From NCBI GenBank assembly GCA_964016885.1, contig OZ024740.1, positions 72,664,001 to 72,728,000 on the forward strand: a stretch of DNA of 64,000 nucleotides, given 5' to 3'. The stretch is from Eledone cirrhosa (Eukaryota). The notes beneath the pieces were generated by a model. That model did no database searches, was not told the origin of the DNA, and worked only from the letters and a program-made list of their open reading frames with translations. Of the stretch, positions 3,001 through 56,954 are shown piece by piece. Position numbers and translations under genes: made by a program. How positions within the stretch are numbered: the first letter of the stretch is position 1; each line of letters begins with the position of its first letter.

Positions 3001-3980
3001 ACAACAACAATATTGAGAAGTTAGAACACACTGAACTGATACAACAACAACAACAACAATATTGAGAAGTTGGAACACACTGAACTGATACAACAACAAC
3101 AACAACAACAACAATATTGAGAAGTTGGAACACACTGAACCGATACAACAACAACAACAACAACAACAACAATATTGAGAAGTTGGAACACACTGAACTG
3201 ATACAACAACAACAACAACAACAATATTGAGAAGTTGGAACACACTGAACTGATACAACAACAACAACTACAACAACAATATTGAGAAGTTGGAACACAC
3301 TGAACTGATACAACAACAACAACAACAACAATATTGAGTAGTTGGAACACACTGAACTGATACAACAACAACAACAACAACAATATTGAGAAGTTGGTAC
3401 ACACTGAACTGATACAACAACAACAACAACAACAATATTGAGAAGTTGGAACACACTGAACTGATACAACAACAACAACCTCAACAATATTGAGAAGTTG
3501 GAACACACTGAACTGATACAACAACAACAACAACAACAATATTGAGAAGTTGGAACACACGGAACTGATACAACAACAACAACAACAATATTGAGAAGTT
3601 AGAACACACTGAACTGATACAACAACAACAACAACAATATTGAGAAGTTGGAACACACTGAACTGATACAACAACAACAACAACAACAATATTGAGAAGT
3701 TGGAACACACTGAACTGATACAACAACAACAACAACAATATTGAGAAGTTAGAACACAGTGAACTGATACAACAACAACAACAACAACAACAACAGCAAT
3801 ATTGAGAAGTTGGAACACACTGAACTGATACAACAACAACAACAACAACAATATTGAGTAGTTGGAACACACTGAACTGATACAACAACAACAACAACAA
3901 CAATATTGAGAAGTTGGTACACACTGATACAACAACAACAACAACAACAATATTGAGAAGTTAGAACACACTGAACTGAT

Positions 3981-4021
<41 letters not shown>

Positions 4022-7012
4022 ATTGAGAAGTTGGAACACACTGAACTGATACAACAACAACAACAACAACAATATTGAGAAGTTGGAACACACTGAACTG
4101 ATACAACAACAACAACAACAATATTGAGAAGTTGGAACACACTGAACTGATACAACAACAACAACAACAATATTGAGAAGTTGGAACACACTGAACTGAT
4201 ACAACAACAACAACAACAACAATATTGAGAAGTTGGAACACACTGAACTGATACAACAACAACAACAACAATATTGAGAAGTTGGAACACACTGAACTGA
4301 TACAACAACAACAACAACAACAATATTGAGAAGTTGGAACACACTGAACTAATACAACAACAACAACAACAATATTGAGAAGTTGGAACACACTGAACTG
4401 ATACAACAACAACAACAACAATATTGAGAAGTTGGAACACACTGAATTGATACAACAACAACAACAACAATATTGAGAAGTTGGAACACACTGAACTGAT
4501 ACAACAACAACAACAACAATATTGAGTAGTTGGAACACACTGAACTGATACAACAACAACAACAACAATATTGAGAAGTTGGAACACACTGAACTGATAC
4601 AACAACAACAACAACAACAATATTGAGAAGTTGGAACACACTGAACTAATACAACAACAACAACAACAATATTGAGAAGTTGGAACACACTGAACTGATA
4701 CAACAACAACAACAACAATATTGAGAAGTTGGAACACACTGAATTGATACAACAACAACAACAACAATATTGAGAAGTTGGAACACACTGAACTGATACA
4801 ACAACAACAACAACAATATTGAGTAGTTGGAACACACTGAACTGATACAACAACAACAACAACAATATTGAGAAGTTGGAACACACTGAACTGATACAAC
4901 AACAACAACAACAATATTGAGAAGTTGGAACACACTGAATTGATACAACAACAACAACAACAATATTGAGAAGTTGGAACACACTGAACTGATACAACAA
5001 CAACAACAACAATATTGAGTAGTTGGAACACACTGAACTGATACAACAACAACAACAACAATATTGAGAAGTTGGAACACACTGAATTGATACAACAACA
5101 ACAACAACAATATTGAGAAGTTGGAACACACTGAACTGATACAACAACAACAACAACAATATTGAGAAGTTGGAACACACTGAACTGATACAACAACAAC
5201 AACAACAATATTGAGAAGTTGGAACACACTGAACTGATACAACAACAACAACAACAACAATATTGAGAAGTTGGAACACACTGAATTGATACAACAACAA
5301 CAACAACAATATTGAGAAGTTGGAACACACTGAATTGATACAACAACAACAACAACAATATTGAGAAGTTGGAACACACTGAACTGATACAACAACAACA
5401 ACAACAATATTGAGTAGTTGGAACACACTGAACTGATACAACAACAACAACAACAATATTGAGAAGTTGGAACACACTGAACTGATACAACAACAACAAC
5501 AACAATATTGAGTAGTTGGAACACACTGAACTGATACAACAACAACAACAACAATATTGAGAAGTTGGAACACACTGAACTGATACAACAACAACAACAA
5601 CAATATTGAGAAGTTGGAACACACTGAACTGATACAACAGCAACAACAACAATATTGAGTAGTTGGAACACACTGAACTAATACAACAACAACAACAACA
5701 ATATTGAGAAGTTGGAACACACTGAACTGATACAACAACAACAACAACAACAATATTGAGAAGTTGGAACACACTGAACTGATACAACAACAACAACAAC
5801 AATATTGAGAAGTTGGAACACACTGAATTGATACAACAACAACAACAACAATATTGAGAAGTTGGAACACACTGAACTGATACAAGAACAACAACAATAT
5901 TGAGTAGTTGGAACACACTGAACTGATACAACAACAACAACAACAATATTGAGAAGTTGGAACACACTGAACTGATACAACAACAACAACAACAACAATA
6001 TTGAGAAGTTGGAACACACTGAACTGATACAACAACAACAACAACAACAATATTGAGAAGTAGAAACACACTGAACTGATACAACAACAACAACAACAAC
6101 AATATTGAGAAGTTGGAACACACTGAACTGATACAACAACAACAACAATATTGAGAAGTTGGAACACACTGAACTGATACAACAACAACAACAACAACAA
6201 TATTGAGAAGTTGGAACACACTGAACTGATACAACAACAACAACAACAACAATATTGAGAAGTTGGAACACACTGAACTGATACAACAACAACAACAACA
6301 ACAACAATATTGAGAAGTTGGAACACACTGAACTGATACAACAACAACAACAATATTGAGAAGTTGGAACACACTGAACTGATACAACAACAACAACAAT
6401 ATTGAGAAGTTGGAACACACTGAACTGATACAACAACAACAACAATATTGAGAAGTTGGAACACACTGAACTGATACAACAACAACAACAACAACAATAT
6501 TGAGAAGTTGGAACACACTGAACTGATACAACAACAACAACAACAACAATATTGAGAAGTTGGAACACACTGAACTGATACAACAACAACAACAATATTG
6601 AGAAGTTGGAACACACTGAACTGATACAACAACAACAACAACAACAATATTGAGAAGTTGGAACACACTGAACTGATACAACAACAACAACAACAACAAT
6701 ATTGAGAAGTTGGAACACACTGAACTGATACAACAACAACAACAACAACAACAATATTGAGAAGTTGGAACACACTGAACTGATACAACAACAACAACAA
6801 CAACAATATTGAGAAGTTGGAACACACTGAACTGATACAACAACAACAACAACAACAACAATATTGAGAAGTTGGAACACACTGAACTGATACAACAACA
6901 ACAACAACAACAACAATATTGAGAAGTTGGAACACACTGAACTGATACAACAACAACAACAACAACAATATTGAGAAGTTGGAACACACTGCACTGATAC
7001 AACAACAACAAC
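1..7012. repeat. Composite minisatellite: constant 31-nt TATTGAGAAGTTGGAACACACTGAACTGATA alternating with variable (CAA)n; runs off the window start
   Basis: Directly visible. Unit length is 31+3n, mostly about 46-61 bp, with well over 100 near-identical copies. Confidence 0.98.
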
Positions 7013-7625
7013 AATAATAATAATAATGACAATAATAACAGCAACAATAACAACAATAACAACAAAAATATCGACAACAGCAACAATAACAACAATAACA
7101 ACAATAACAACAACAATGACAACAGCAACAGTAACAACAATAACAACAATAACAACAACAACGACAACAGCAACAGTAACAACAATAACAACAATATCGA
7201 CAACAGCAACAATAACAACAATAATAACAACAACAACAGCAACAATAACAACAACAACATCAATAACAACAATATCGACAACAGCAACAATAACAATAAC
7301 AACAATTTCAGCGACTGCACCAATAACAATAACAACATTATCAGCAACAACAACGACAACAGCAACAATAACAACAATAACAACAACAACAACAACAATA
7401 ACAACAATAACAACAATAACAACAATAACAACAATAACAACAACAGCAACAATAACAATAACAACAACGACAGCGACTGCACCAATAACAATAACAACAT
7501 TATCAGCAACAGCAACAATAACAACAATAACTATAAAAACAACGATAGCGACTGCACCAACAACGACAACAACGACAAAAACAGCAAGCAACAACAACAA
7601 AAAACAACAACAGCAGCAAAAACAA
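7013..7625. repeat. Degenerate (AAC/AAT/AGC) trinucleotide low-complexity tract
   Basis: Imperfect ACA/ATA/GCA triplets; source of the spurious poly-Thr ORF. Confidence 0.9.
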
Positions 7626-7997: not shown

Positions 7998-10640
7998 CAC
8001 TAACTAAGTAATAGTTAGCGGACTCAGGGTAGAGTTACTAAAGTACTAACTAAGTAATAGTTAGTGGACTCAGGGTAGAGTTACTAAAGTACTAACTAAG
8101 TAATATTTAGCGGACTCAGGGTAGAGTTACTAAAGTACTAACTAAGTAATAGTTAGTGGACTCAGGGTAGAGTTACAAAAGTACTAGCTAAGGAATAGTT
8201 AGCGGACTCAGGGTAGAGTTACTAAAGTACTAACTAAGTAATAGTTAGCGGACTCAGGGTAGAGTTACTAAAGTACTAACTAAGTAATAGTTAGCGGATT
8301 CAGGGTAGAGTTACAAAAGTACTAACTAAGGAATAGTTAGCGGACTCAGGGTAGAGTTACTAAAGTACTAACTAAGTAATAGTTAGCGGACTCAGGGTAG
8401 AGTTACAAAAGTACTAGCTAAGGAATAGTTAGCGGACTCGGGGTAGAGTTACAAAAGTACTAACTAAGGAATAGTTAGCGGATTCAGGGTAGAGTTACAA
8501 AAGTACTAACTAAGGAATAGTTAGCGGACTCAGGGTAGAGTTACTAAAGTACTAACTAAGTAATAGTTAGCGGACTCAGGGTAGAGTTACAAAAGTACTA
8601 GCTAAGGAATAGTTAGCGGACTCGGGGTAGAGTTACAAAAGTACTAACTAAGGAATAGTTAGCGGACTCAGGGTAGAGTTACTAAAGTACTAACTAAGTA
8701 ATAGTTAGCGGACTCAGGGTAGAGTTACTAAAGTACTAACTAAGTAATAGTTAGTGGACTCAGGGTAGAGTTACTAAAGTACTAACTAAGGAATAGTTAG
8801 TGGACTCATGGTAGAGTTACTAAAGTACTAACTAAGTAATAGTTAGCGGACTCAGGGTAGAGTTACTAAAGTACTAGCTAAAGAATAGTTAGCGGACTCA
8901 GGGTAGAGTTACAAAAGTACTAACTAAGTAATAGTTAGCGGACTCAGGGTAGAGTTACTAAAGTACTAGCTAAGGAATAGTTAGCGGACTCAGGGTAGAG
9001 TTACAAAAGTACTAGCTAAGTAATAGTTAGCGGACTCAGGGTAGAGTTACTAAAGTACTAACTAAGTAATAGTTAGTGGACTCCGGGTAGAGTTACTAAA
9101 GCACTAACTAAGTAATAGTTAGCGAACTCAGGGTAGAGTTACTAAAGTACTAACTAAGTAATAGTTAATGGACTCAGGGTAGAGTTACTAAAGTACTAAC
9201 TAAGTAATAGTTAGCGGACTCAGGGTAGAGTTACTAAAGTACTAACTAAGTAATAGTTAGCGGACTCAGGGTAGAGTTACTAAAGTACTAACTAAGTAAT
9301 AGTTAGTGGACTCAGGGTAGAGTTACTAAAGTACTAACTAAGTAATAGTTAGCGGATTCAGGGTAGAGTTACTAAAGTACTAACTAAGTAATAGTTAGCG
9401 GACTCAGGGTAGAGTTACTAAAGTACTAACTAAGTAATAGTTAGCGGACTCAGGGTAGAGTTACTAAAGTACTAGCTAAGGAATAGTTAACGGATTCAGG
9501 GTAGAGTTACAAAAGTACTAACTAAGGAATAGTTAGTGGACTCAGGGTAGAGTTACTAAAGTAATAACTAAGTAATAGTTAGCGGACTCAGGGTAGAGTT
9601 ACAAAAGTACTAACTAAGGAATAGTTAGCGGACTCAGGGTAGAGTTACTAAAGTACTAACTAAGTAATAGTTAGCGGACTCAGGGTAGAGTTACAAAAGT
9701 ACTAGCTAAGGAATAGTTAGCGGACTCAGGGTAGAGTTACAAAAGTACTAACTAAGGAATAGTTAGCGGACTCAGGGTAGAGTTACTAAAGTACTAACTA
9801 AGTAATAGTTAGCGGACTCAGGGTAGAGTTACTAAAGTACTAACTAAGTAATAGTTAGTGGACTCAGGGTAGAGTTACTAAAGTACTAACTAAGGAATAG
9901 TTAGTTGACTCAGGGTAGAGTTACTAAAGTACTAACTAATAGTTAGCGGACTCAGGGTAGAGTTACTAAAGTACTAGCTAAGGAATAGTTAGCGGACTCA
10001 GGGTAGAGTTACAAAAGTACTAACTAAGTAATAGTTAGCGGACTCAGGGTAGAGTTACTAAAGTACTAGCTAAGGAATAGTTAGCGGACTCAGGGTACAG
10101 TTACAAAAGTACTAGCTAAGTAATAGTTAGTGGACTCAGGGTAGAGTTACAAAAGTACTAGCTAAGGAATAGTTAGCGGACTCAGGGTAGAGTTACTAAA
10201 GTACTAACTAAGGAATAGTTAGTTGACTCAGGGTAGAGTTACTAAAGTACTAACTAAGTAATAGTTAGCGGACTCAGGGTAGAGTTACTAAAGTACTAAC
10301 TAAGTAATAGTTAGTGGACTCAGGGTAGAGTTACTAAAGTACTAACTAAGTAATAGTTAGTGGACTCAGGGTAGAGTTACTAAAGTACTAACTAAGTAAT
10401 AGTTAGTGGACTCAGGGTAGAGTTACTAAAGTACTAACTAAGTAATAGTTAGTGGACTCAGGGTAGAGTTACTAAAGTACTAACTAAGTAATAGTTAGTG
10501 GACTCAGGGTAGAGTTACTAAAGTACTAACTAAGTAATAGTTAGTGGACTCAGGGTAGAGTTACAAAAGTACTAACTAAGGAATATTTAGTGGATTCAGG
10601 GTAGAGTTACTAAAGCACTAACTATCCCATAGTTAGTGGT
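7998..10640. repeat. 46-bp tandem satellite (ACTAACTAAGTAATAGTTAGCGGACTCAGGGTAGAGTTACTAAAGT), about 57 copies
   Basis: Period 46 seen directly (e.g. 8045 to 8091). Each unit holds the hairpin CTAACTA-AGTAA-TAGTTAG. Confidence 0.97.
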
Positions 10641-10644
10641 CTCA

Positions 10645-11312
10645 GCAATGCCAAATGGTTAAGAAGTTCGCCTTGCAATCATAAATTCGCAGGTTCGATC
10701 CCATTGCTTGGCATCATGCGCAAGTGTCATTTACTATAGTCCCAGGTCGTCCTACGAGAAATTGGGTAGACTGTTTTTTGGAAGCCTGTCCTATGTACTG
10801 TACCTGTAATTCAAAGAGAGAGATATGTCATACACTGCGACATTCTGAATCTCCCTGAGAACTACGCTAAGGGTACACGTCTATGGAATCACCAGCCACT
10901 TACACAGTAATACAAGATGGACTGTACCTGTAATTCAAAGGGCCAGTCACAATACACGCAGCATCACTTTGGATCTCCCTGAGAACTAAACACAGTAATA
11001 CAAGATTGATTACATCTGAAATTCAAATGGCCAGTCATATCACACACTGCGTCACTCTGGATCTCCCCGAGAACTACGCAAAGGGTACACGTATCTGTGG
11101 AATACTCAGCCACTTATACAGTAATACAAGATAGACTGTACTTGAATTTCAAACGGCCAGTCTTGTTACACACTGCACCACTCTGAATCTCCCTGAGGAA
11201 GACGTTAAGTGTACACGTGTCCGTATAACGCTCAGTCAATTGCACGTTAATTTGACAAGTAGGTTATTGCGTTGACCAAACAACTGGAGCACTCGTCATC
11301 GAAACCGATTCC
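10645..11312 (+). mobile_element. tRNA-derived SINE with an internally multiplied body segment
   Basis: A-box-like AATGGTTAAG and B-box GGTTCGATCCC. The body motif (G/A)ATCTCCCTGAGAACTACG occurs four times and is shared with copies at about 35030 and 56805. Confidence 0.75.
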
Positions 11313-12139: not shown

Positions 12140-12561
<422 letters not shown>

Positions 12562-12749
12562 GTTATATAGTTATACTTGGGGAGAGTCATATTTGTGTAA
12601 TATTGCCAGAATTAATAACAGAACACACTCACTGTTTGGTTGGTTTTCGCTTTTCGCTTCTGTGTCTTTTATATCGGTAATCTAATTTATTCGGACCTCA
12701 ATGTTGCCATTGACTGACCAACGGTCAAAAATAATACAGATACATATAT

Positions 12750-12803
12750 ATAGTTTATCAAAGTTCTTTCGTTGCACATCTGCAACATCGTCAGTGGTGC
12801 TAT
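12750..12803 (-). ncRNA. Mirror copy of the PLE hammerhead motif
   Basis: Exact reverse complement of 15947-16000. Confidence 0.55.
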
Positions 12804-13059
12804 TGTTTCCTCCCGTTGCATTGTATTTTCTACGCCATCTTTATTTAGTCTGTTTATATATTTATTTATTTGTTTATTTTATTTTGTCTTCTTTGCGCAT
12901 GCGTTTGCGTGTGTGTATAGTGTTTTGTTTGATGTGTGTTCGTGATTGGGTGACTGTGTATTGGTTAATGTATTCTATCTTTACTAGTGTGCGTTTATAT
13001 GTGTTTGTTGTTATTATGCTTGTGTATGTATTTATTTATTTATTTATCTATTTATTTAT

Positions 13060-13982
13060 TTAGACTTCTCTTAGGACAGTGTTGTTTGTTTGGGTGTTGT
13101 TGTTATTCCATTCATTCTTTCTGTTTAGCCTTGGCCTTCTAAGTTCTATTTCACTGGCCTCTCTAATTTGCCTATCTGCTGGGTCATTTCTATGTTTAGA
13201 TATTATTCTAATTTCTATATTGTCTATGTTACCGTCGTGTTGTCTGGCATGTTCGTATAGTACTGAACCGTTTTTTCGTCCTTTTAGTTCCCCCCAGTGT
13301 TGGTCTATCCTTTCACCTATGCTACGAGCTGTCTCGCCTATGTATGTTGTTGTCATGTTTCTGCAAGTACCCTCTGTACATCTTATGCTATAGACTACGT
13401 TTCTAGTTTTACAGTTTATCCGGGGGTTTACCTTACATATGATACATTTCCTATTAGTACAGTGGGTTTTTTTAAAAGGGTAGGTTTTGCTGATCAGGGA
13501 TTTTATGGTGGTTCCTGGCTTTTCTACCACCTTAATCTTTAAGTGGGTCTTTCTCAGGGCCTTTCTACACTGGTTAGCTAATTTCCCTCCAGGGGTAGCG
13601 TCCACAAACATGACACTCTGGTATCTCTGGTTGTCGTACCATGAGGTGGCTTTCCCTATCTTATGTCTAGCCCTATCTAAGCTATTCCATGATTTTCTGT
13701 ATAATGGGCAAATTTCTTTCATGTCCAGTTCTATGAGGGTCTTATACTTCTCCATGGCACCTTCGTATACTCTGACTCTGTCTCTTTGGTTGTAGCCAGA
13801 GAACTGCATGCGGTTGATGAAGTGTTGGATGTGTCCTTCCATTTCTGTTGGGTCGCACATGCGGGACACATTCTTCATCACTCGTACCAAATCTGCGATC
13901 AGAATATTAAACTTAGCACTACTGGACATTGCTGAGTTTTTGAGTATCAGGTATTTGGAGGCCATGGGTTTAGCATAGTGTG
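13060..13982 (-). pseudogene. Inverted duplicate of the PLE RT thumb and GIY-YIG region; open frame of 301 aa from an internal Met
   Basis: Near-identical to the plus-strand copy, with TGC (Cys) where that copy has TGA. Confidence 0.9.
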
Positions 13983-15690
13983 GAACAGGAACCTATCCAA
14001 CTGCATAATAGGCAGCATGGATGTGGTATCAATGTATCCATCCATTAACATTGATTTTGCTGTGGAAAAATGTGTGGAGATGATAATTGAGAGTGAGGTG
14101 GAGTTCTGCGACGTCGACACAGACGAACTGGGCCTCCTATTTAGACTTACCTACGACACTGACTACCTAGACAGCCATGACCTTAGACGTTTCTGCCCCA
14201 GTAGACCCATAAGAGGTAGACCCCCCCCCACCATAACCTCAATGGCTAAAAAGACTCCCATGGGAAGGTGGATTGGATGGACCAGAGCTATACGGACCCC
14301 CCAAAACAATGATCAGGTAAGAAAAATGGTCGCACATGCAATAGGGGCTAGTATCAAAACTACCCTAAAGGGCCACATATTCAAGTTCAACGAGAAGATC
14401 TACACCCAAAATGAGGGAGGAGCCATTGGCGTCAGCATAGCTGGTGATGTTGCCAACCTTTTTATGGTATGGTGGGAAAGGAGACTTAAAGATCTCCTTA
14501 ATGAGAGCTCCATAGACCTCGTCATGTACTCTCGTTATGTAGACGATATCAATATAGTTATAAGAACATCCTCACAAGAGAGCACTAACAAGTTTGATTT
14601 AGAACGTAGCACAATGGAAAGCATCCAGCAGATAGCTAATTCCATACACCAGAGTATAACTGTAACTATCGACTACCCTTCCAAACACCCTAACAGTAGA
14701 CTACCTGTATTAGACACGGAACTCTGGATTAACACTATAGACGAGAGAGCCCAAATTCTCCACTCACACTATGCTAAACCCATGGCCTCCAAATACCTGA
14801 TACTCAAAAACTCAGCAATGTCCAGTAGTGCTAAGTTTAATATTCTGATCGCAGATTTGGTACGAGTGATGAAGAATGTGTCCCGCATGTACGACCCAAC
14901 AGAAATGGAAAGACACATCCAACACTTCATCAACCGCATGCAGTTCTCTGGCTACAACCAAAGAGACAGAGTCAGAGTATACGAAGGAGCCATGGAGAAG
15001 TATAAGACCCTCATAGAACTGGACATAAAAGGAATTTGCCCATTATACAGGAGCAAATCATGGAATAGCTTAGATAGGGCTAGACATAAGATAGGGAAAG
15101 CCACCTCATGGTGCGACAACCAGAGATACCAGAGTGTCATGTTTGTGGACGCTACCCCTGGAGGGAAATTAGCTAACCAGTGTAGAAAGGCCCTGAGAAA
15201 GACCCACTTAAAGATTAAGGTGGTAGAAAAGCCAGGAACCACCATAAAATCCCTGATCAGCAAAACCTACCCGTTTAAGAAAACCCACTGTACTAATAGG
15301 AAATGTATCATATGTAAGGTAAACCCCCGGATAAACTGTAAATCTAGAAATGTAGTCTATAGCATAAGATGTACAGAGGGTACTTGAAGAAACATGACAA
15401 CAACATACATAGGCGAGACAGCTCGTAGCATAGGTGAAAGGATAGACCAACACTGGGGGGAACTAAAAGGACGAAAAAACGGTTCAGTACTATACGAACA
15501 TGCCAGACAACACGACGGTAACATAGACAATATAGAAATTAGAATAATATCTAAACATAGAAATGACCCAGCAGATAGGCAAATCAGAGAGGCCAGTGAA
15601 ATAGAACTTAGAAGGCCAAGGCTAAACAGAAAGAATGAATGGAATAACAACAACACCCAAACAAACAACACTGTCCTAAGAGAAGTCTAA
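13978..15690 (+). pseudogene. PLE reverse transcriptase plus C-terminal GIY-YIG endonuclease; 5'-truncated, with one in-frame TGA at 15385-15387
   Basis: RT motifs GSMDVVSMYPSI, YTQNEGGAIGVSIAGDVANLFM, RYVDD and LPVLD; Cys-rich linker HCTNRKCIIC; VVYSIRC...YIGETAR...R..QH...H...H...E...LN. The linker FVDATPGGKLA...IKVVEKPG resembles the Nematis clade (recalled, not searched). Confidence 0.93.
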
Positions 15691-15946
15691 ATAAATAAAT
15701 AGATAAATAAATAAATAAATACATACACAAGCATAATAACAACAAACACATATAAACACACACTAGTAAAGATAGAATACATTAACCAATACACAGTCAC
15801 CCAATCACGAACACACATCAAACAAAACACTATACACACACGCAAACGCATGCGCAAAGAAGACAAAATAAAATAAACAAATAAATAAATATATAAACAG
15901 ACTAAATAAAGATGGCGTAGAAAATACAATGCAACGGGAGGAAACA

Positions 15947-16000
15947 ATAGCACCACTGACGATGTTGCAGATGTGCAACGAAAGAACTTTGATAAACTAT
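15947..16000 (+). ncRNA. Minimal type-I hammerhead ribozyme motif in the PLE 3' UTR/pLTR
   Basis: CTGACGA-t-GTTGCA(gatg)TGCAAC-GAAA-GAACTTT. Stem II is perfect; stems I and III are weak. Confidence 0.55.
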
Positions 16001-16169
16001 ATATATGTATCTGTATTATTTTTGACCGTTGGTCAGTCAATGGCAACATTGAGGTCCGAATAAATTAGATTACCGATATAAAAGACACAGAAGCGAAAAG
16101 CGAAAACCAACCAAACAGTGAGTGTGTTCTGTTATTAATTCTGGCAATATTACACAAATATGACTCTCC

Positions 16170-16268
<99 letters not shown>

Positions 16269-19412: not shown

Positions 19413-19530
19413 ATATATATACTCATGTACACACATTTATATATATATATATATATACACATACACACACATACACAGTCACACGCACACGCGCACCCCC
19501 CCCCCCACATATATATATATATATATATAT

Positions 19531-20108
19531 ATGAAAAACAAGGGGAGAAGAATACTGCCTGGTTGCACATGGATTACATATTATAAAATTAGTCCCTCAT
19601 CAGTGATTTGCCAACCATCATTGGTATTTCATCGCATTAAAAATCAGATACCTCAGGTTGGTGCGAGCAATAACTAAAATAAGCTATTGGGTCAAGTGAA
19701 ACGCGTAAAGCGAGTGAGACAAGTAAACAACAGAAGGAAAAGCAAACCGAAGGTTGGAAAAACAGCAAGCAACATGGTAGTTATCCGATCAGCATAAACT
19801 GGGGGAATTTCATGAGCGGTCAGAGAAGCAGACCGTACGCCGTGAATGCGGTGTGAGAAAGAAGGAACCCCACTACTAGCGAACGGGGGGAAATGAGAAG
19901 CGGAGAAACAGAGAGTGAGTGAGAGGAAGTGCGAGGAAGAGGTCAGTCGAGAGAAAGTGTAACTGACAGAGAGGGCGAATGAAGGTATGAGAAACAGAGA
20001 GAACGGGGGAGCAGTAAGAGAGAAATAGAGAAACAGATAATCGCAGTTTAGGTAAATATATATGAAAAACAAGGGGAGAAGAATACTGCATGGTTGCACA
20101 TGGATTAC

Positions 20109-20112
<4 letters not shown>
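19531..20112 (-). mobile_element. Short element with about 55-bp direct terminal repeats in a (TA)n site; partial hammerhead core
   Basis: ATGAAAAACAAGGGGAGAAGAATACTGC.TGGTTGCACATGGATTACATATTATA occurs at 19531 and 20062. The minus strand has CTGATGAG at about 19597-19603 without a downstream GAAA. Confidence 0.55.
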
Positions 20113-20147
<35 letters not shown>

Positions 20148-20302
20148 CGAGAGAGATTTTGAGTTTATGTTGGTTGTATACCAACACCTAAGTATGCAGG
20201 CTGTAGCACTCGACGAAGTGCGCAGGTTGGTTTGGTTACTCCGGAGTAGTGTAAAATAAAGTTAAATAAAAGTCAAATGATTAAAATTTAGCTTCGTTTA
20301 TT

Positions 20303-20357
20303 ACTGCTATATATATTTCAGTGACAGCCATCTTTGGCTGTGACCTCTTCAGGCAGT
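20303..20357 (-). ncRNA. Type-I hammerhead ribozyme (mirror arm)
   Basis: ACTGC-CTGAAGA-GGTCACAGCCA(aaga)TGGCTGTCACT-GAAA-TATATA-TA-GCAGT; stem III ATATATAT is palindromic. Confidence 0.8.
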
Positions 20358-20956
20358 TTGAATTAGTATGTTTTCTTCATTTATTGCCTTATATTTCTTC
20401 ATATACATGGAACCCCCCCCCCCCCCCCCCACCACCACCACTACGATGGTGGCAGGAGGGATGAAGAAAAAACACAAACTGGATACTTCTAAATTGTTAG
20501 CAGCAGCAAGATATAAGCTGACCACTACACCAACAAGAGTACCAAAATAATGGTGGAGGTCAAATGTACTGAACAATAAAAGGCAAAAACACTACAGGGA
20601 GCCTCACCCCAGAAAGAATTCTATAGACTTCTGACTGAGGAATGCTCTCAGAGCTGACCAATGGGAAGATTGACACTTTTCTTGTTATTTTGTTCCTTTA
20701 ACACCTTGTCCCTTCTACCATTTTATCAATTTTTAAGCTAACTCCAACAATAACAACACTTAGAATGAGGAATGTTCTAATAACTGACCAATGAGAGGAG
20801 AAGGGGACCTTTGACACTGAAATTCGTTTGTTTGAATTCATATGACTCCAGTCCCTCAGTGATTTAACAACCAAACAAGGAACTGGGCATATCAGAGTAT
20901 TGACAAAATTATACACCTAAACAACATATGTACTTGTCTATACCATACTAATTCAA

Positions 20957-21011
20957 ACTGCCTGAAGAGGTCACAGTCAAAGATGTCTGTCACTGAAATG
21001 TATATAGCAGT
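20957..21011 (+). ncRNA. Type-I hammerhead ribozyme
   Basis: ACTGC-CTGAAGA-[stem II GGTCACAG..CTGTCACT]-GAAA-TGTATA-TA-GCAGT; stem I is ACTGC/GCAGT. Confidence 0.75.
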
Positions 21012-21055
21012 AATAAACGAAGCTAAATTTTAATCATTTGACTTTTATTTAACTT

Positions 21056-21146
<91 letters not shown>

Positions 21147-21177
21147 CAAAAGTTTTATTTAAAATTGTTGGGTTACA

Positions 21178-24100
21178 ACCACCACTTCACCATACCACCA
21201 TACCACCATACCACCATACGACCATACCACCATACCGCCATTCCACCATACCACCATACCACCATACCACCATACCGCCATTCCACCATACCGCCATACC
21301 GCCATTCCACCATACCACCATACCACCATACCACCATACCGCCATTCCACCATACCACAATTCCACCATTCCACCGTACCACCATACCACCATACCACCA
21401 TTCCACCATGCCACCACACCACCATACCACCATTCCACCATACCACCATACCACCATACAACCATACCGCCATACCGCCATACCACAATACCACCATACC
21501 ACCATACCACCATAGCACCATAGCACCATTCCACCATTCCACCATACCACCATTCCACCATAGCACCATTCCACCATTCCACCATACCACCATACCACCA
21601 TTCCACCATACCACCATACCACCACACCACCAAACCTCCATACCACCATACCACCATACCACCATTCCACCATACCACCATACCACCATACCACCATACC
21701 ACCATTCCACCATACGACAATTCCACCATACCACCATACCACCATACCACCATACCATCCATTCCACCCACCATACCACCATTCCACCATACCACCACAC
21801 CGCCATTCCACCATACCACCATACCACCATACCACCATTCCACCATGCCACCATACCACCATACCACCATACCGCCATACCGCCATACCACCATACCACC
21901 ATACCACCATTCCACCATGCCACCATACCACCATACCACCATACCACCATACCACCATACCACCATACCACCACACCACCATAGCACCATAGCACCATAT
22001 CACCATTCCACCATACGACAATTCCACCATACCACCATACCACTATACCACCATACCATCCATTCCACCCACCATACCACCATTCCACCATACCACCACA
22101 CCGCCATTCCACCATACCACCATACCACCATACCACCATTCCACCATTCCACCATACCACCATACCACCATACGACCATTCCACCATACCACCACTTCAC
22201 CATACCACCATACCACCATACCACCATACCACCATTCCACCATACCACCACTTCACCATACCACCATACCACCATTCCACCGTACCACCATACCACCCGA
22301 CCACCATAGCACCATACCACCATACCACCATACCACCATACCACCATTCCACCATACCACCATACCACCATAGCACCATTCCACCATACCACCATACCAC
22401 CATTCCACCATACCACCACTTCACCACACCACCATACCACCATACCACCATAGCACCATACCACCATAGCACCATACCACCATAAGACCATACCACCATA
22501 CCACCATACCACCATATCACCAGACCACCATACCACCATTCCACCATACCACCATACCACCATTCCACCATTCCACCATACCACCATACCACCCGACCAC
22601 CATAGCACCATACCACCATACCACCATACCGCCATTCCACCATACCGCCATACCGCCATTCCACCATACCACCATACCACCATACCACCATACCGCCATT
22701 CCACCATACCACAATTCCACCATTCCACCGTACCACCATACCACCATACCACCATTCCACCATGCCACCACACCACCATACCACCATTCCACCATACCAC
22801 CATACCACCATACAACCATACCGCCATACCGCCATACCACAATACCACCATACCACCATACCACCATACCACCACACCACCATAGCACCATAGCACCATA
22901 TCACCATTCCACCATACGACAATTCCACCATACCACCATACCACTATACCACCATACCATCCATTCCACCCACCATACCACCATTCCACCATACCACCAC
23001 ACCGCCATTCCACCATACCACCATACCACCATACCACCATTCCACCATTCCACCATACCACCATACCACCATACCACCATTCCACCATACCACCACTTCA
23101 CCATACCACCATACCACCATTCCACCGTACCACCATACCACCCGACCACCATAGCACCATACCACCATACCACCATACCACCATACCACCATTCCACCAT
23201 ACCACCATACCACCATAGCACCATTCCACCATACCACCATACCACCATTCCACCATACCACCACTTCACCACACCACCATACCACCATACCACCATAGCA
23301 CCATACCACCATAGCACCATACCACCATAAGACCATACCACCATACCACCATACCACCATATCACCAGACCACCATACCACCATTCCACCATACCACCAT
23401 ACCACCATTCCACCATTCCACCATACCACCATACCACCATTCCACCATTCCACCATACCACCACTTCACCATACCACCATACCACCATACCACCATACCA
23501 CCATACCACCAATCCACCATACCACCATACCACCATACCACCAGTCCACCATACCACCATACCACCATACCACCATTCCACCATTCCACCATAGCAACAT
23601 ACCACCATACCGCCATTCCACCATACCACCATACCACCATTCCACCATACCACCATACCACCATTCCACCATACCACCATACCACCATAGCACCATACCA
23701 CCATAGCACCATTCCACCATACCACCATACCACCATAGCACCATACCACCATACCATCATTCCACCATACCACCATACCACCATACCACCATACCATCAT
23801 ACCACCATACCACCATTCCACCATACCACCATACCACCATACCACCATTCCACCATTCCACCATACCACCATACCACCATACCACCATTCCACCATACCA
23901 CCACTTCACCACACCACCATACCACCATAGCACCATACCACCATACCACCATTCCACCATACCACCATAGCACCATACCACCATACCACCATACCACCAT
24001 ACCACCATTCCACCATACCACCATACCACCATACCGCCATTCCACCATACCACCATACCGCCATACCGCCATTCCACCATACCACCATACCACCATACCA

Positions 24101-27100
24101 CCATTCCACCATACCACCATACCACCATACGACCATTCCACCATACCACCATTCCACCATACCAACATACGACCATTCCACCATACCACCACTTCACCAT
24201 ACCACCATACCACCATACCACCATACCACCATTCCACCATACCACCATACCACCCGACCGCCATAGCACCATAGCACCATTCCACCATACCACCATACCA
24301 CCATTCCACCATACCACCACTTCACCACACCACCATACCACCATACCACCATACCACCATAGCACCATAGCACCATACCACCATACCACCATAGCACCAT
24401 AGCACCATACCACCATACCGCCATTCCACCATACCACCATACCACCATACCACCATATCACCAGACCACCATACCACCATACCGCCATACCACCATACCG
24501 CCATTCCACCATACCACCATACCAACATACCACCGTAACACCATACCACCATACCACCATACCACCATTCCACCATACCACCATAGCAACATACCACCAT
24601 ACCGCCATTCCACCATTGCACCATACCACCATACCACCATAGCACCATACCACCATAGCACCATTCCACCATACCACCATACCACCATAGCACCATACCA
24701 CCATACCATCATTCCACCATACCACCATACCACCGTAACACCATACCACCATACCACCATACCATCATACCACCATACCACCATACCACCATTCCACCAT
24801 ACCACCATACCACCATACCACCATACCACCATTCCACCATACCACCATACCACAATACCACCCGACCACCATACCACCATAGCACCATAGCACCATACCA
24901 CCATTCCACCATACCACCATACCACCATTCCACCATACCACCACTTCACCACACCACCATACCACCATAGCACCATACCACCATACCACCATTCCACCAT
25001 ACCACCATACCACCATAGCACCATACCACCATACCACCATACCACCATTCCACCATTCCACCATACCACCATACCACCATACGACCATTCCACCATACCA
25101 CCACTTCACCATACCACCATACCACCATACCACCATACCACCATACCACCATTCCACCATACCACCACTTCACCATACCACCATACCACCATTCCACCGT
25201 ACCACCATACCACCCGACCACCATAGCACCATACCACCATACCACCATACCACCATACCACCATTCCACCATACCACCATACCACCATAGCACCATTCCA
25301 CCATACCACCATACCACCATTCCACCATACCACCACTTCACCACACCACCATACCACCATACCACCATAGCACCATACCACCATAGCACCATACCACCAT
25401 AAGACCATACCACCATACCACCATACCACCATATCACCAGACCACCATACCACCATTCCACCATACCACCATACCACCATTCCACCATTCCACCATACCA
25501 CCATACCACCATTCCACCATTCCACCATACCACCACTTCACCATACCACCATACCACCATACCACCATACCACCAATCCACCATACCACCATACCACCAT
25601 ACCACCAGTCCACCATACCACCATACCACCATACCACCATTCCACCATTCCACCATAGCAACATACCACCATACCGCCATTCCACCATACCACCATACCA
25701 CCATTCCACCATACCACCATACCACCATTCCACCATACCACCATACCACCATAGCACCATACCACCATAGCACCATTCCACCATACCACCATACCACCAT
25801 AGCACCATACCACCATACCATCATTCCACCATACCACCATACCACCATACCACCATACCATCATACCACCATACCACCATTCCACCATACCACCATACCA
25901 CCATACCACCATTCCACCATTCCACCATACCACCATACCACCATACCACCATTCCACCATACCACCACTTCACCACACCACCATACCACCATAGCACCAT
26001 ACCACCATACCACCATTCCACCATACCACCATAGCACCATACCACCATACCACCATACCACCATACCACCATTCCACCATACCACCATACCACCATACCG
26101 CCATTCCACCATACCACCATACCGCCATACCGCCATTCCACCATACCACCATACCACCATACCACCATTCCACCATACCACCATACCACCATACGACCAT
26201 TCCACCATACCACCATTCCACCATACCACCATACGACCATTCCACCATACCACCACTTCACCATACCACCATACCACCATACCACCATACCACCATTCCA
26301 CCATACCACCATACCACCATACCACCCGACCGCCATAGCACCATAGCACCATTCCACCATACCACCATACCACCATTCCACCATACCACCACTTCACCAC
26401 ACCACCATACCACCATACCACCATACCACCATAGCACCATAGCACCATACCACCATACCACCATAGCACCATAGCACCATACCACCATACCGCCATTCCA
26501 CCATACCACCATACCACCATACCACCATATCACCAGACCACCATACCACCATACCGCCATACCACCATACCGCCATTCCACCATACCACCATACCAACAT
26601 ACCACCGTAACACCATACCACCATACCACCATACCACCATTCCACCATACCACCATAGCAACATACCACCATACCGCCATTCCACCATTGCACCATACCA
26701 CCATACCACCATAGCACCATACCACCATAGCACCATTCCACCATACCACCATACCACCATAGCACCATACCACCATACCATCATTCCACCATACCACCAT
26801 ACCACCGTAACACCATACCACCATACCACCATACCATCATACCACCATACCACCATACCACCATTCCACCATACCACCATACCACCATACCACCATACCA
26901 CCATTCCACCATACCACCATACCACAATACCACCCGACCACCATACCACCATAGCACCATAGCACCATACCACCATTCCACCATACCACCATACCACCAT
27001 TCCACCATACCACCACTTCACCACACCACCATACCACCATAGCACCATACCACCATACCACCATTCCACCATACCACCATACCACCATAGCACCATACCA

Positions 27101-27565
27101 CCATACCACCATACCACCATTCCACCATACCACCATACCACCATACCGCCATTCCACCATACCACCATACCGCCATACCGCCATTCCACCATACCACCAT
27201 ACCACCATACCACCATATCACCATACCACCATACCACCATTCCACCATACCACCATACCGCCATACCGCCATACCGCCATTCCACCATACCACCATACCA
27301 CCATTCCACCATTCCACCATACCACCATACCACCATACCACCATTCCACCATTCCACCACACCACCACTTCACCATACCACCATACCACCATACCACCAT
27401 ACCACCAATCCACCATACCACCATACTACCATACCACCATAGCACCATACCACCATACCACCATACCACCATTCCACCATACCACCATACTACCATACCA
27501 CCATACCACCATACCACCATTCCACTATACCACCACTTCACCATTCCACCATACCACCACACCAC
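21178..27565. repeat. 8-bp satellite (ACCATACC)n with variants and a higher-order duplication of about 2.07 kb
   Basis: Direct reading; rare variants recur at an offset of about 2064-2072. Confidence 0.97.
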
Positions 27566-27944
27566 TATACCAGCACACCATCACTCCACCACACCACTAC
27601 ACCACACTACATCGCTTCACTCCACTCCACCACCATTCCACCAGTCCGCCACACCACCACACCACCACTACATCGCACCACCACTACATCGCTCTACCAC
27701 CACCCCACCACTACACCATACCAGCACACCAGCACACAACCACTACATCACTCTATCACTCAACCACCACACCACTCCACCACTCCACCGCCCCTCCACT
27801 TCACCACTTCACCATACCACCATTACATCGCTTCACCACCACTCCACCACTACATAGCTCCACCACCATTCCACCACATCTTCACTCCACCACTCTCCCA
27901 CTCCACTACCGTCGACACAGCCACCATCGCCGCCACCGCCACCA

Positions 27945-28027
27945 AACATTATTCCAAGAACTGTGTTAGAGTGGAAACCCGCCGGACACTCACGCAGAGT
28001 GAAAGTGGCCCAGATACACTTGGCTGC
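27945..28027 (+). mobile_element. Possible decayed RTE-clade LINE C-terminal fragment
   Basis: Translates as IPRTVLEWKPAGHSRR, then shifts frame to PRYTWL, resembling the RTE 'vLxWxPxGxRxrGRPrxtW' motif. Confidence 0.4.
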
Positions 28028-28157
28028 CTTTCTACTTGCTGCATGCATTATCTGCATTAGCGATAAAAAGTCTTCACATTTTCCAGAAACTTCTTTTCTT
28101 CTTTCACCCTATTTCTTCTGCTGCCGTGGAAGCATGTTAGAAGCATATTTCAGCACT

Positions 28158-30946
28158 TCACACTACACTGCACCACACCACACTGCACCAAACCACACTA
28201 CACCACACTGCACCACACCATACTGCACCATACCACACTACACCACACCACACCACACTACACTACACCACACTACACCACACTGCACCACACCACACTA
28301 CACCACACTGCACCACACCATATTGCACCACACCACACTACACCACACCACACTACACTACACCACACTGCACCACACCACACTACACCACACTGCACCA
28401 CACCATATTGCACCACACCACACTACACCACACCACACTACACCACACTGCACCACACCACACTACACCACACCACACCGCACTACACTACACCACACCA
28501 CACTACACCACACCACACTACACCACACTGCACCACACCACACTACACCACACCACACCGCACTACACTACACCACACCACACTACACCACACTACACCA
28601 CACCACACCACACTACACCACACCACACCACACTGCACCACACCACACTACACCACACCACACCACACCACACTACACTACACCACACTACACCACACTG
28701 CACCACACCACACTACACCACACTGCACCACACCACACTGCACCACACCACACTACACCACACCACACTACACTACACCACACCACACTACACCACACTG
28801 CACCACACCACACTACACCACACCACACCGCACTACACTACACCACACCACACTACACCACACCACACTACACCACACCACACTACACCACACCACACTA
28901 CACCACACCACACTACACCACACTACACTACACCACACTGCACCACACCACACTGCACCACACCACACTACACCACACTACACTACACCACACCACACTA
29001 CACTACACCACACCACACCACTCCACACCACACCACACCACACTACACCACACTACACCACACCACTCCACACCACACCACACCACACCACACCACACCA
29101 CACTACACCACACCACACTACACCACACCACACCACACCACACCACACCACACCACACTACACCACACCACTCCACACCACACCACACCACACCACACCA
29201 CACTACACTACACCCCACCACACCACACCACGCCACACTACACCACACCACACCACACCACACCACACCACACCACACTACACCACACCACACTACACCA
29301 CACCACACTACACCACTCCACACCACACCACGCCATACTACACCACACCACACCACACTACACCACACCACACCACACTACACCACACCACACCACATCA
29401 CACTACACCACACCACACTACACCACACCACACTGCACCACACCACACTACACCACACCACACTACACTACACCACACCACACCACACCACACTACACCA
29501 CACTGCACCACACCACACCACACCACACCACACCACACCACACCACACCACACTACACTACACCACACCACACCACGCCCCACTACACCACACTACACTA
29601 CACCACACTACACCACACCACACCACACCACACCACACTACACCACTCCACACCACACCACGCCACACTACACCACACTACACCACACCACACCACACTA
29701 CACCACACCACACCACACCACACTACACCACACCACACCACACTACACCACACCACACCACACTACACTACACTACACCACACTACACTACACCACGCCA
29801 CACTACACCACACCACACCACACTGCACCACACCACACCACACTATACCACACTACACCACACTACACTACACCCCGCCACACTACACCACACCACACCA
29901 CACTACACCACACCACACCACACAATGCCACACCACACCACACCACACCACACTACACCACACCACACTACACTACACTACACCACACTACACTACACCA
30001 CGCCACACTACACCACACCACACCACACCACACTACACCACGCCACACTACACCACACCATACCACACCACACTACACCACACCACACCACACTACACTA
30101 CACCACGCCACACTACACCACACCACACCACACCACACCACACCACACCACACCACACCACACTACACTACACCACGCCACACTACACCACACCACACCC
30201 CGCCACACCACACCACACCACACCACACCACACTACACCACACCACACAATGCCACACCACACCACACTACACCACACCACACCACACCACACTACACCA
30301 CACCACACCACACCACACTACACTACACTACACCACACTACACTACACCACGCCACACTACACCACACCACACCACACCACACCACACCACACCACACTA
30401 CACTACACCACGCCACACTACACCACACCACACCACACCACACTACACCACACCACACCACACCACTCCACACCACACCACACCACACCACACTACACCA
30501 CACTACACTACACCACACCACACTACACCACACCACACCACACCACACTACACTACACCACGCCACACTACACCACACCACACCACACTACACTACACCA
30601 CGCCACACTACACCACACCACACTGCACCACTCCACACCACACCACACCACACTACACCACACCACACCACGCCACACTACACCACACCACACCACACCA
30701 CACCACACTACACCACACTACACCACACCACACCACACTACACCACACCACACCACACTACACCACACCACACCACACCACACTACACCACGCCACACTA
30801 CACCACACTACACCACACCACACCACACCACTCCACACCACACCACACCACACTACACCACACCACACCACGCCACACTACACCACACCACACCACACAA
30901 TACCACACTACACCACACTACACCACACTACACCACATATCACCAC
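28158..30946. repeat. 5-bp satellite (CACCA/CACTA)n
   Basis: Direct reading; source of the spurious 997-aa and 898-aa H/T/P ORFs. Confidence 0.97.
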
Positions 30947-31482
30947 AACACTTTAGTGAGAAGGAACCACACCAAACACTGATATCTTCAATACTTGGTC
31001 GCCACATTTCCTTGTTTAGCGTCATCTCTCTAATACATTTACTATCAGGTTTAATCATGTGGATCGTTTTGAAAAGTGAGGCTCTTAAATTAGGAAGATT
31101 TTGAAAAGAAAATAATATCACTATCACCTTCACCGCCGCTACCGTCACCACTTCCACCATAATTACCACTGCCACCGTCACCACTTCCACCGACGCCACT
31201 GCCACCCCCACCATCGTCACCAACTATTTAGGAGAAGGACACACCAAAGTAAAGCCTACAAACCGAGGATCTTGCTGTCGCCGTCCTAGCTATGACTGTC
31301 GCTTAACTAGCTATGATTGTCGAACTCCCGGTGTAAAGAGTGGAGTTGACTTTTTGAGGGCAAAGGAAACATCCTGTAAATATGTGTGTATATCTGATTG
31401 TGTTAATTGACTGGTCAAGAGTTCAAATGGGGATAGGGAATTGTAAGCTAGAAGCAAATTCTATGGCAGCAGGGTTAAATAA

Positions 31483-35084: not shown

Positions 35085-38000
35085 GTCTGTCTTAAAACCT
35101 TTTAATATGTTAGGATGGTGGAAGATATTTTAATGTTAGACCGGTGAATGTCAGTCATAAGATTATTTAATGTGTTAGGATGGTTGATGTCAGTCATAAG
35201 ATATTTTAATGTTAGGACGGTTGATGTCAGTGATAAGATATTTTAATGTTAGGACGGTTGATGTCAGTCATGAGATATTTTAATGTTAGGACGGTTGATG
35301 TCAGTCTTAAGATATTTTAATGTTAGGACGGTTGATGTCAGTCATAAGATATTTTAATGTTAGGACAGTGGATGTCAGTCATAAGATATTTTAATGTTAG
35401 GACGGTTGATGTCAGTCATAAGATATTTTAATGTTAGGACAGTGGATGTCAGTCATAAGATATTTTAATGTTAGGACAGTGGATGTCAGTCATGAGATAT
35501 TTTAATGTTAGGACGGTTGATGTCAGTCATAAGATATTTTAATGTTAGGACAGTGGATGTCAGTCATAAGATATTTTAATGTTAGGACAGTGGATGTCAG
35601 TCATAAGATATTTTAATGTTAGGACGGTTGATGTCAGTCATAAGATATTTTAATGTTAGGACGGTGGATGTCAGTCTTAAGATATTTTAATATGTTAGGA
35701 CAGTTGATATCAATAATAAAATTGTTTAATATGTTATGACAACGGATGTCAGTCATAAGATATTTCGATATGTTAGGATGGTGGAAGATATTTTAATGTT
35801 AGGACGGTTGATGTCAGTCATAAGATATTTCAATATGTTAGGATGGTGGAAGATATTTTAATGTTAGGACGGTTGATGTCAGTCATAAGATATTTTAATC
35901 TTAGGACAGTGGATGTCAGTCATAAGATATTTTAATGTTAGGACGGTTGATGTCAGTCATAAGATATTTTAATGTTAGGACAGTGGATGTCAGTCATAAG
36001 ATATTTTAATGTTAGGACAGTGGATGTCAGTCATAAGATATTTTAATGTTAGGACGGTTGATGTCAGTCATAAGATATTTTAATGTTAGGACGGTTGATG
36101 TCAGTCATAAGATATTTTAATGTTAGGACGGTTGATGTCAGTCATAAGATATTTTAATGTTAGGACAGTGGATGTCAGTCATAAGATATTTTAATGTTAG
36201 GACGGTTGATGTCAGTCATAAGATATTTTAATGTTAGGACGGTTGATGTCAGTCATAAGATATTTTAATGTTAGGACGGTTGATGTCAGTCATTAGATAT
36301 TTTAATGTTAGGACCGTTGATGTCAGTCATAAGATATTTTAATGTTAGGACAGTGGATGTCAGTCATAAGATATTTTAATGTTAGGACGGTTGATGTCAG
36401 TCATAAGATATTTTAATGTTAGGACGGTTGATGTCAGTCATAAGATATTTTAATGTTAGGACGGTTGATGTCAGTCTTAAGATATTTTAATGTTAGGACG
36501 GTTGATGTCAGTCTTAAGATATTTTAATGTTAGGACGGTTGATGTCAGTCATAAGTAATTTTAATGTTAGGACGGTTGATGTCAGTCATAAGATATTTCA
36601 ATATGTTAGGATGGTGGAAGATATTTTAATGTTAGGACGGTTGATGTCAGTCATAAGATATTTTAATGTTAGGACAGTGGATGTCAGTCATAAGATATTT
36701 TAATGTTAGGACGGTTAATGTCAGTCATAAGATATTTTAATGTTAGGACGGTTGATGTCAGTCATAAGATATTTTAATGTTAGGACGGTTGATGTCAGTC
36801 ATAAGATATTTTAATGTTAGGACAGTGGATGTCAGTCATAAGACATTTTAATGTTAGGACGGTTGATGTCAGTCATAAGATATTTTAATGTTAGGACAGT
36901 GGATGTGAGTCATAAGATATTGTAATGTTAGGACAGTGGATGTCAGTCATAAGATATTTTAATGTTAGGACGGTTGATGTCAGTCATAAGATATTTTAAT
37001 GTTAGGACGGTTGATGTCAGTCATAAGATATTTTAATGTTAGGACGGTTGATGTCAGTCTTAAGATATTTTAATGTTAGGACGGTTGATGTCAGTCTTAA
37101 GATATTTTAATGTTAGGACGGTTGATGTCAGTCATAAGATATTTTAATGTTAGGACAGTGGATGTCAGTCATCAGATATTTTAATGTTAGGACGGTTGAT
37201 GTCAGTCATAAGATATTTTAATGTTAGGACGGTTGATGTCAGTCATAAGATATTTTAATGTTAGGACGGTTGATGTCAGTCATAAGATATTTTAATGTTA
37301 GGACAGTGGATGTCAGTCATAAGACATTTTAATGTTAGGACGGTTGATGTCAGTCATAAGATATTTTAATGTTAGGACGGTTGATGTCAGTCATAAGATA
37401 TTTTAATGTTAGGACAGTGGATGTCAGTCATAAGAGATTTTAATGTTAGGACGGTTGATGTCAGTTATAAGATATTTTAATGTTAGGACGGTTGATGTCA
37501 GTCATAAGATATTTTAATGTTAGGACGGTTGATGTCAGTCTTAAGATATTTTAATGTTAGGACGGTTGATGTCAGTCTTAAGATATTTTAATGTTAGGAC
37601 GGTTGATGTCAGTCATAAGATATTTTAATGTTAGGACGGTTGATGTCAGTCATAAGATATTTCAATATGTTAGGATGGTGGAAGATATTTTAATGTTAGG
37701 ACGGTTGATGTCAGTCATAAGATATTTTAATGTTAGGACAGTGGATGTCAGTCATAAGATATTTTAATGTTAGGACGGTTGATGTCAGTCATAAGATATT
37801 TTAATGTTAGGACGGTTGATGTCAGTCATAAGATATTTTAATGTTAGGACGGTTGATGTCAGTCATAAGATATTTTAATGTTAGGACAGTGGATGTCAGT
37901 CATAAGATATTGTAATGTTAGGACAGTGGATGTCAGTCATAAGATATTTTAATGTTAGGACGGTTGATGTCAGTCATAAGATATTTTAATGTTAGGACGG

Positions 38001-50399: not shown

Positions 50400-50582
50400 A
50401 TAATTGTTTCTACTTTTGGCACAAGGCCAGAAATTATTCCAGTGTATTACTGGTACTTTATTTTATCGAACCCGTAATGATGAATAGCAAAGTTAACCTC
50501 GGCGGGATTTGAACTCAGTCCGTAAAGCGGCGTAACTGTGCTGCAAAGCATGGCGTCCGACCCTCTACCGATACTGCCAATA
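50400..50582 (-). mobile_element. SINE copy
   Basis: Reverse-complement match to 48770-48950. Confidence 0.8.
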
Positions 50583-51048: not shown

Positions 51049-51069
51049 TATACATACATACATAATATA

Positions 51070-52601: not shown

Positions 52602-52654
<53 letters not shown>

Positions 52655-52775: not shown

Positions 52776-52853
<78 letters not shown>

Positions 52854-56935: not shown

Positions 56936-56954
56936 TATTACATGTTTTTACAAT

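Follow-up and report, generated by a model that had tools for sequence, protein, structure and literature searches.

Within the window, i.e. the whole 64,000-nucleotide stretch of DNA that was analysed, lies a pair of near-identical inverted arms, each of which can be drawn as a hammerhead ribozyme. MITEs are short and non-coding, with inverted ends and TA flanks, and the locus raises the question of whether it is an element of this type, a self-contained ribozyme element, or the product of another kind of transposition. According to the analysis below, it is very probably a single insertion of a high-copy retroelement family moved by Penelope-like element (PLE) machinery, comprising RT and GIY-YIG. 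The feature is real and its kind is known: a truncated PLE-type insertion with a mirrored 3' end and minimal hammerheads.

A full-text literature search, judged by titles and the beginnings of abstracts, gave no paper on octopus hammerhead ribozymes, and for MITEs with hammerheads in their terminal inverted repeats (TIRs) the literature search returned plant work only. The word 'ribozyme' is absent from the main text and one supplement of the Octopus vulgaris repeat paper (PMC13282606). The family may already be catalogued, for example in Repbase, in Dfam or in the supplements of Craig et al.

Boundaries and layout of the insertion

The initial annotation described 119-bp inverted termini around a 573-bp interior, and this layout was confirmed, the arms being identical at 116 of 119 positions (Table 1). 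Its left boundary at 20252 was wrong, as judged from read and contig depth: positions 20147-20251 are part of the same repeat family. The corrected insertion measures approximately 910 bp and is bounded by (TA)17 on the left and (TA)42 on the right. Its arms are unequal by about 100 bp, due to a tail that is present on the left only. There is no target duplication at the original boundaries, and the corrected ones have (TA)n on either side. Because both flanks consist of (TA)n, target site duplications (TSDs) cannot decide here between a MITE and a PLE; microsatellites are described as hiding the TSDs of PLE copies (PMC8557442). We also agree with the initial view that the arms are hammerhead folds and that the MITE label is misleading; the repeats are not fixed TIRs.

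Searches of the interior bear out the claim that it is non-coding. A profile built from 152 PLE endonuclease segments did not match it, and tblastn with 155 PLE-related proteins gave nothing significant (best score 23.5 bits). The profile recovered its positive control with an E-value of 1e-53, but was built around the relatives of the neighbouring PLE, and a distant clade could escape it. An open reading frame that starts within the arm (ATG at 20983) closes after 16 codons. The interior is multi-copy, yet far rarer than the 3' end of the family. Two candidate motifs in it resemble the CCAAT-box consensus. A T-x-x-P-x-x-F-N pattern near 20845-20870 was considered as a GIY-YIG C-terminus and rejected, because it gave no profile match and most reads differ at 20863. 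Upstream of the hammerhead, where D. virilis Penelope has an intron, inspection by eye revealed no convincing splice sites.

Table 1. Features of the insertion, joints of other copies and the neighbouring PLE (positions refer to the window)
Feature	Positions	Strand	Basis
Left flank (TA)17, probable target microsatellite	20113..20146	.	sequence
One-sided 3' extension ('tail', 98-105 bp) of the inverted copy	20147..20251	-	depth; loose (TA)n ends
Left arm: inverted, 5'-truncated copy of the element's 3' end	20252..20370	-	majority letters at the three arm differences
Type-I minimal hammerhead, better preserved, palindromic stem III, predicted cut after 20308	20303..20357	-	
Body of the direct 5'-truncated copy, non-coding; long 3' UTR or non-autonomous body	20371..20943	+	
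CCAAT-box-like candidate motif (second at 20656-20664)	20786..20794	+	motif match
Preferred 5' boundary of direct copies; candidate pLTR or RNA start	20840..20865	+	4/9 junctions and depth step
Right arm: 3' end of the direct copy, short end used, runs into (TA)n	20944..21062	+	
Type-I minimal hammerhead, three private substitutions, predicted cut after 21006	20957..21011	+	
Right flank (TA)42	21061..21144	.	
Joints of other copies, tail or left arm to body or right arm	20190>20845, 20203>20865, 20277>20860, 20305>21007, 20331>20913, 20337>20840, 20364>20923		read/contig mapping
5'-truncated PLE of a different family: RT and C-terminal GIY-YIG, 1.48-kb inverted copy of its own 3' end	12507..16237	+	

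The two hammerhead folds and their predicted activity

As first proposed, each arm is a type-I hammerhead in the outward-reading strand, with a 5-bp Watson-Crick stem I and a long stem II, and the cut positions previously predicted for the two strands match the sequence folds exactly. Both arms share the core CUGAAGA, the long stem II, GAAA, a tiny stem III and a UA cut site, and the conserved core (C3-A9, G12-A14, A15.1-U16.1, H17) is present in both. A strict descriptor matched twice in the 27,606 non-satellite bases of the window, both times in these arms, which are copies of each other and count as one event; it did not match in any of 200 Markov-1 resamplings. Rfam gave no match at gathering thresholds over the whole window, and at E<=10 in 20000-21200 there were 13 low-scoring matches, with no hammerhead model among them.

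The folds are not 'canonical', as had been stated. In both arms stem II opens with G.U instead of G10.1-C11.1, and no extra base follows A9; stem II also has a C/C mismatch at the fourth pair. The extra base after A9 and G10.1-C11.1 are typical, not obligatory, traits of PLE hammerheads, and are present in two other families of the window. The description of both hammerheads as intact holds for the cores only. Likewise, the palindromic stem III claimed for both arms is perfect in the left arm (ATATATAT) and is not found in the right arm (ATGTATAT), where stem III pairs with G.U pairs.

All three differences between the arms (20977, 20986 and 21000) fall within the hammerhead, and two of them change both partners of one stem-II pair in the right arm (20977, 20986). 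X18 reads agree with the left arm at 20977 (17/22 and 38/42 reads), at 20986 (22/23 and 31/33) and at 21000 (16/23 and 26/31). The right arm is thus one stem-II pair short and no longer has a perfect palindrome in stem III. Folding energies of the 55-mers are -9.6 kcal/mol for the right arm versus -15.7 kcal/mol for the left arm, and the modelled folds make the left arm the better predicted cleavage substrate.

The locus had been put forward as the best candidate for an active ribozyme in the window, which appears doubtful. In favour of the proposal, the isolated 55-mers are predicted to form stems I and II, with stem I pairs at 0.56-0.85. In the predicted read-through RNA, the arms pair with each other at a mean probability of 0.97-0.99 and stem I has a probability of 0, with the masking arm being transcribed first on either strand. 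For RNAs that start inside the element, the predicted stem I probability is 0-0.29 (five + strand starts) or 0.07-0.21 (four - strand starts). As the arms are predicted to mask both folds in read-through RNA, the locus is a poor bet for activity. The modelled active dimer is favoured over two monomers, but for both arms a misfolded dimer is 5.6 kcal/mol more stable still.

Minimal hammerheads of PLEs are reported to cleave weakly, or only when protein is present. The minimal hammerhead assayed in PMC4209133 is reported without cleavage as a monomer and with low cleavage as dimers, and the one described in PMC11167929 cut only with protein and was dispensable for insertion. The RNA-seq search reported in the latter source found no evidence of in vivo cleavage of PLE hammerheads, and the role of these hammerheads is presented as still open (PMC8557442, PMC11167929). 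Hammerhead cleavage in this family, if any, would take place as a dimer or with the assistance of protein in the RNA of the parent, and probably not at this locus.

Other copies of the family and neighbouring loci

Four of 20 public runs, with three organism labels among them, were mapped onto 20147-21062 at 80% likeness, a cut-off that mixes related subfamilies. The mapped records comprise 2,696 contigs from X1, 9,181 RAD reads from X18, 48 records from X4 and 30 from X5. They identify a high-copy family, and in all four runs depth heaps up at the + strand 3' end. Summed X1 contig depth, which is not a copy number, is 265-414k at 20860-20952, 38-79k at 20767-20859, 18-33k at 20581-20766 and 9-21k at 20488-20580; positions 20395-20487, where repeats were skipped, were left out of the comparison. 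Along the same gradient X18 depth drops from ~1,050-1,190 to ~238, and X4 and X5 depth is zero at 20395-20549. Seven of the eight listed X1 pieces have a depth of 6-13, and as a rough estimate the X1 depths suggest thousands of copies or more.

The tail is as deep as the 3' body (X1 190-375k). Ends at (TA)n fall into two classes about 100 nt apart, one at ~20154 (one contig each in X4 and X5) and a short end, seen at the equivalent left-arm site in 12 X1 contigs. Pattern scans for the 3' end or the hammerhead gave no match in metagenome, prokaryote-genome and viral collections. Piles of X18 read ends at 20285, 20364, 20824, 20835 and 20953 were considered as element boundaries and rejected as restriction-library artefacts, as all are on AATT.

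Seven of the ten listed joints connect the left arm or its tail with the right arm or the body (Table 1); the remainder are two short skips within the tail and arm and one strand-changing, ambiguous joint. With two low-count joints added (20352>20587, 2 reads; 20355>20758, 3 reads) and a short go-back (20947>20924) left uncounted, there are nine inversion-type junctions, all distinct from each other and from the 20370/20371 junction in the window. Two of the nine are located in the tail, beyond the supposed TIR, and the second hammerhead is complete in just one. The initial notion of an 811-bp unit with two hammerhead termini is thus unsupported, because the other eight junctions cut into or omit the second hammerhead, and the inverted arms differ in length among copies. 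The starts of the direct copies are staggered between 20587 and 21007; together with the depth gradient in the four runs, this points to variable 5' truncation and 3' anchoring.

Taken singly, the junctions are thinly supported: in three of the four X1 junctions the shorter side is under 31 letters long, and the X1 break at 20364 sits on AATT. X18 is a restriction library rich in AATT chimeras, and AATT is near the right break in two of its five junctions and at the left break in none of the five. Partial tandems forming direct pLTRs were found neither at the locus nor among the listed joints, with short contigs and 150-nt reads limiting their detection. A unit-length head-to-tail tandem joint was also found neither at the locus nor among the ten listed joints.

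Four of the nine direct copies begin at 20840-20865, where depth steps too, that is 46-71 nt downstream of the CCAAT-like motif and ~90-120 nt upstream of stem I. D. virilis Penelope has its RNA start at 371 and an intron end at 491 (PMC2377424), the latter at helix I (PMC4209133), so that RNA start and helix I have a similar spacing there. Positions 20840-20865 may be an RNA start. One fold-back X1 contig (20305>21007) has its apex immediately 3' of the predicted cut, at 21007-21008. This contig is a single record with a depth of 7.3, 2 ambiguous letters and a side of 28 letters, less than the 31-letter guide for bridging, and we treat a fold-back junction on the predicted cut site as a lead only.

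The neighbouring PLE, which belongs to a different family, carries an inverted copy that is 97.8% identical, and its flanks are TA-rich microsatellites. Hammerhead cores are present on both strands (15956 on + and 12794 on -), with a 6-bp stem II and a poorly pairing stem I. A stop interrupts the direct copy at 15385-15387, whereas the inverted copy has an open frame there. The best relative among five matches is an 803-amino-acid Octopus vulgaris protein with 60% identity, which makes an octopus the probable host. This PLE has the layout of the 20147-21062 insertion with the open reading frame still attached.

Several other repeats of the window fold back on themselves. A second hammerhead family is represented at 61133-61321 by a head-to-head palindrome that is joined 5-6 nt upstream of the core, flanked by (TA)n at either end and extended at one of them by ~80 bp; within 53357-53490 the family has another, single copy on the - strand (53438-53488). 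An imperfect palindrome of 193 bp at 50860-51052 has a PLE-type hammerhead core on its - strand (50934); the partner on the + strand is decayed and has a palindromic stem III. Short TA-flanked copies at 62438-62647, 60930-61059 and 62729-62801 form a third family, whose member at 62438-62647 is a fold-back with a one-sided extension of ~77 bp, in which a possible hammerhead core is recognisable in its 3' half alone. One-sided extensions of ~77-105 bp thus occur in three families of the window and exceed published tails. Similarity of the 3' end of the insertion to these other hammerhead loci was not significant, as 69, 15 and 55 of 300 shuffles each reached the score.

Adjacent to the insertion and sharing a (TA)n flank with it, a 595-bp stretch (19522-20116) is enclosed by 64-bp direct repeats (97%), each adjoining (TA)n, and contains CUGAUGA at 19603 on the - strand; another element in partial tandem may account for the stretch. 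A 1.1-kb fold-back element at 52156-53290 has inverted arms of ~500 bp around a CA/TG microsatellite core, and scans detected no hammerhead core in it. A 200-bp hairpin at 62883-63082 is 87% self-complementary and ends at (TA)n. Dispersed and tandem copies of a SINE-like repeat that appears to resemble octopus SINEs are found at 48447-48979, 50395-50580, 50779-50861 and 56098-56579. Satellite arrays at 6-7022, 7999-10645, 21188-30951, 35122-48102 and 56954-60208, with periods of ~52, 46, 8-10, 37 and 28 bp, together make up more than half of the window.

Origin of the insertion and likeness to known systems

Near-perfect 119-bp inverted ends, a non-coding interior and TA on either side are what a MITE or foldback DNA transposon inserting at TA would present, its long TIRs having acquired a hammerhead by chance or capture. 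The junctions would then be internal deletions, and the same-strand skips can be read in this way too. However, coverage of the interior leans strongly to one side, two of the junctions fall in the tail, beyond the supposed TIR, the two arms differ in length by ~100 bp, two end classes occur, and the nearby coding PLE shares the layout; we therefore leave this explanation only a very slight chance. A self-contained ribozyme element with hammerheads of both polarities, amplified as a unit through a viroid-like or retrozyme-like RNA circle, would account for the complete cores on both strands, and animal retrozymes are reportedly derived from pLTRs, leaving monomers (bioRxiv 2026.07.22.740005). 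Such an element appears improbable, given that both hammerheads are kept in only one of the nine other inversion junctions, that the listed joints include no unit-length head-to-tail tandem joint, and that the arms are predicted to mask both folds in read-through RNA. Moreover, each strand has just one sense hammerhead, and therefore no unit-length RNA would be released.

The least probable explanation is an assembly artefact or a local fold-back rearrangement without transposition. No listed contig spans the whole stretch, and inverted repeats next to microsatellites are described as assembling poorly (PMC8557442), but three positions distinguish the arms, junctions of this type turn up at other places in independent runs, and the layout recurs in other families of the window.

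A PLE-type insertion accommodates a family that is anchored at its 3' end, and in which the 5' truncation points of the inverted arm and of the direct copy vary from locus to locus. PLE copies are described as 5'-truncated, with an adjacent inverted 5'-truncated copy, a tail of 30-40 bp at one end and a TA bias (PMC8557442), and their inverted repeats as differing in size copy by copy (PMC2377424). This origin is also favoured by the like arrangement of the protein-coding PLE 4 kb away and by three more small inverted loci of hammerhead-like type in the window. Other observations count against it. Profile and tblastn searches on this copy linked no RT or endonuclease coding sequence to the family; similarity of the 3' end to the neighbouring PLE was not significant (186/300 shuffles scored as high); the tail of 98-105 bp compares with a published 30-40 bp; and the hammerhead lacks the extra base after A9 and G10.1-C11.1 of the PLE consensus.

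The geometry of the insertion is shown by the data, and the enzymology proposed here is borrowed by analogy from other PLEs, in which the protein is described to cut and extend both strands, the tail being defined by two internal RT start sites (PMC11167929). On this model, the element's protein would nick the (TA)n tract and prime two cDNAs on opposite strands; self-priming is a published alternative to opposite-strand priming (PMC3846280). The first cDNA would begin at the distal start site, thus including the tail, and stop 13 nt past hammerhead stem I, the second would begin at the proximal start site and run for ~690 nt, and both would be joined head to head. The hammerhead would be the usual pLTR motif, present twice here because both cDNAs happened to run through it. 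The parent would be an autonomous PLE whose 3' UTR measures at least 590 bp, or else a non-autonomous passenger.

A more far-reaching joint reading holds that the main mobile unit is a pLTR-only RNA of ~210-320 nt starting at 20840-20865, which would be copied in trans in very large numbers from two RT starts ~100 nt apart, with the hammerhead cut in vivo. We regard this combination as rather unlikely; published tails are about a third of the ~100-nt spacing that it assumes. If it were true, copies with their 5' end on the scissile bond, such as 20305>21007, would be genomic fossils of cleaved RNA, and a genome-wide map of the 5' ends of the family would amount to in vivo evidence of PLE hammerhead cleavage. 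Given its abundance, the family could serve to test the role of PLE hammerheads, through copy ends counted at the cut site.

As a truncated PLE-type insertion, the locus itself has little significance; it is a clean example of a PLE insertion mimicking a MITE. Such mimicry matters for cephalopod repeat annotation, and PLEs are given as 6.83% of the Octopus vulgaris genome (PMC13282606 supplement).

Among known systems, MITEs differ in that here the arms are not fixed, the copies are 3'-anchored and the ends are asymmetric; the four-run mapping revealed neither fixed TIRs nor a uniform copy length. Metazoan non-LTR retrozymes (PMC7229834; bioRxiv 10.64898/2026.07.22.740005) are similar as described there, being non-coding and probably PLE-dependent with a type-I hammerhead, and the most abundant part here is 210-320 bp. 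Their arrangement is head-to-tail, whereas here it is head-to-head, with a minimal and not a canonical hammerhead; head-to-tail hammerhead units of 150-450 bp, as expected of retrozymes, were found neither at the locus nor among the ten listed joints.

The minimal type-I hammerheads of metazoan PLEs, as described in 2014 by Cervera and de la Pena (PMC4209133), are alike in their 4-5-bp helix I, long helix II and tiny, dimer-suited palindromic helix III. They occur as opposite-strand pairs ~100-700 bp apart and related to truncated PLEs, and the gap between the folds here is 599 bp. The present folds differ from them in the G.U that opens stem II, in a C/C mismatch in this stem and in the lack of an unpaired base following A9. 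From EN+ PLE insertions (PMC8557442, PMC3846280, PMC2377424) the present copy is set apart by its longer tail and by having no open reading frame. It resembles those described in these sources in the 5'-truncated direct copy with an adjacent inverted 5'-truncated copy, both with outward 3' ends, in the one-sided tail, in the (TA)n flanks that hide TSDs, and in the variable arm length.
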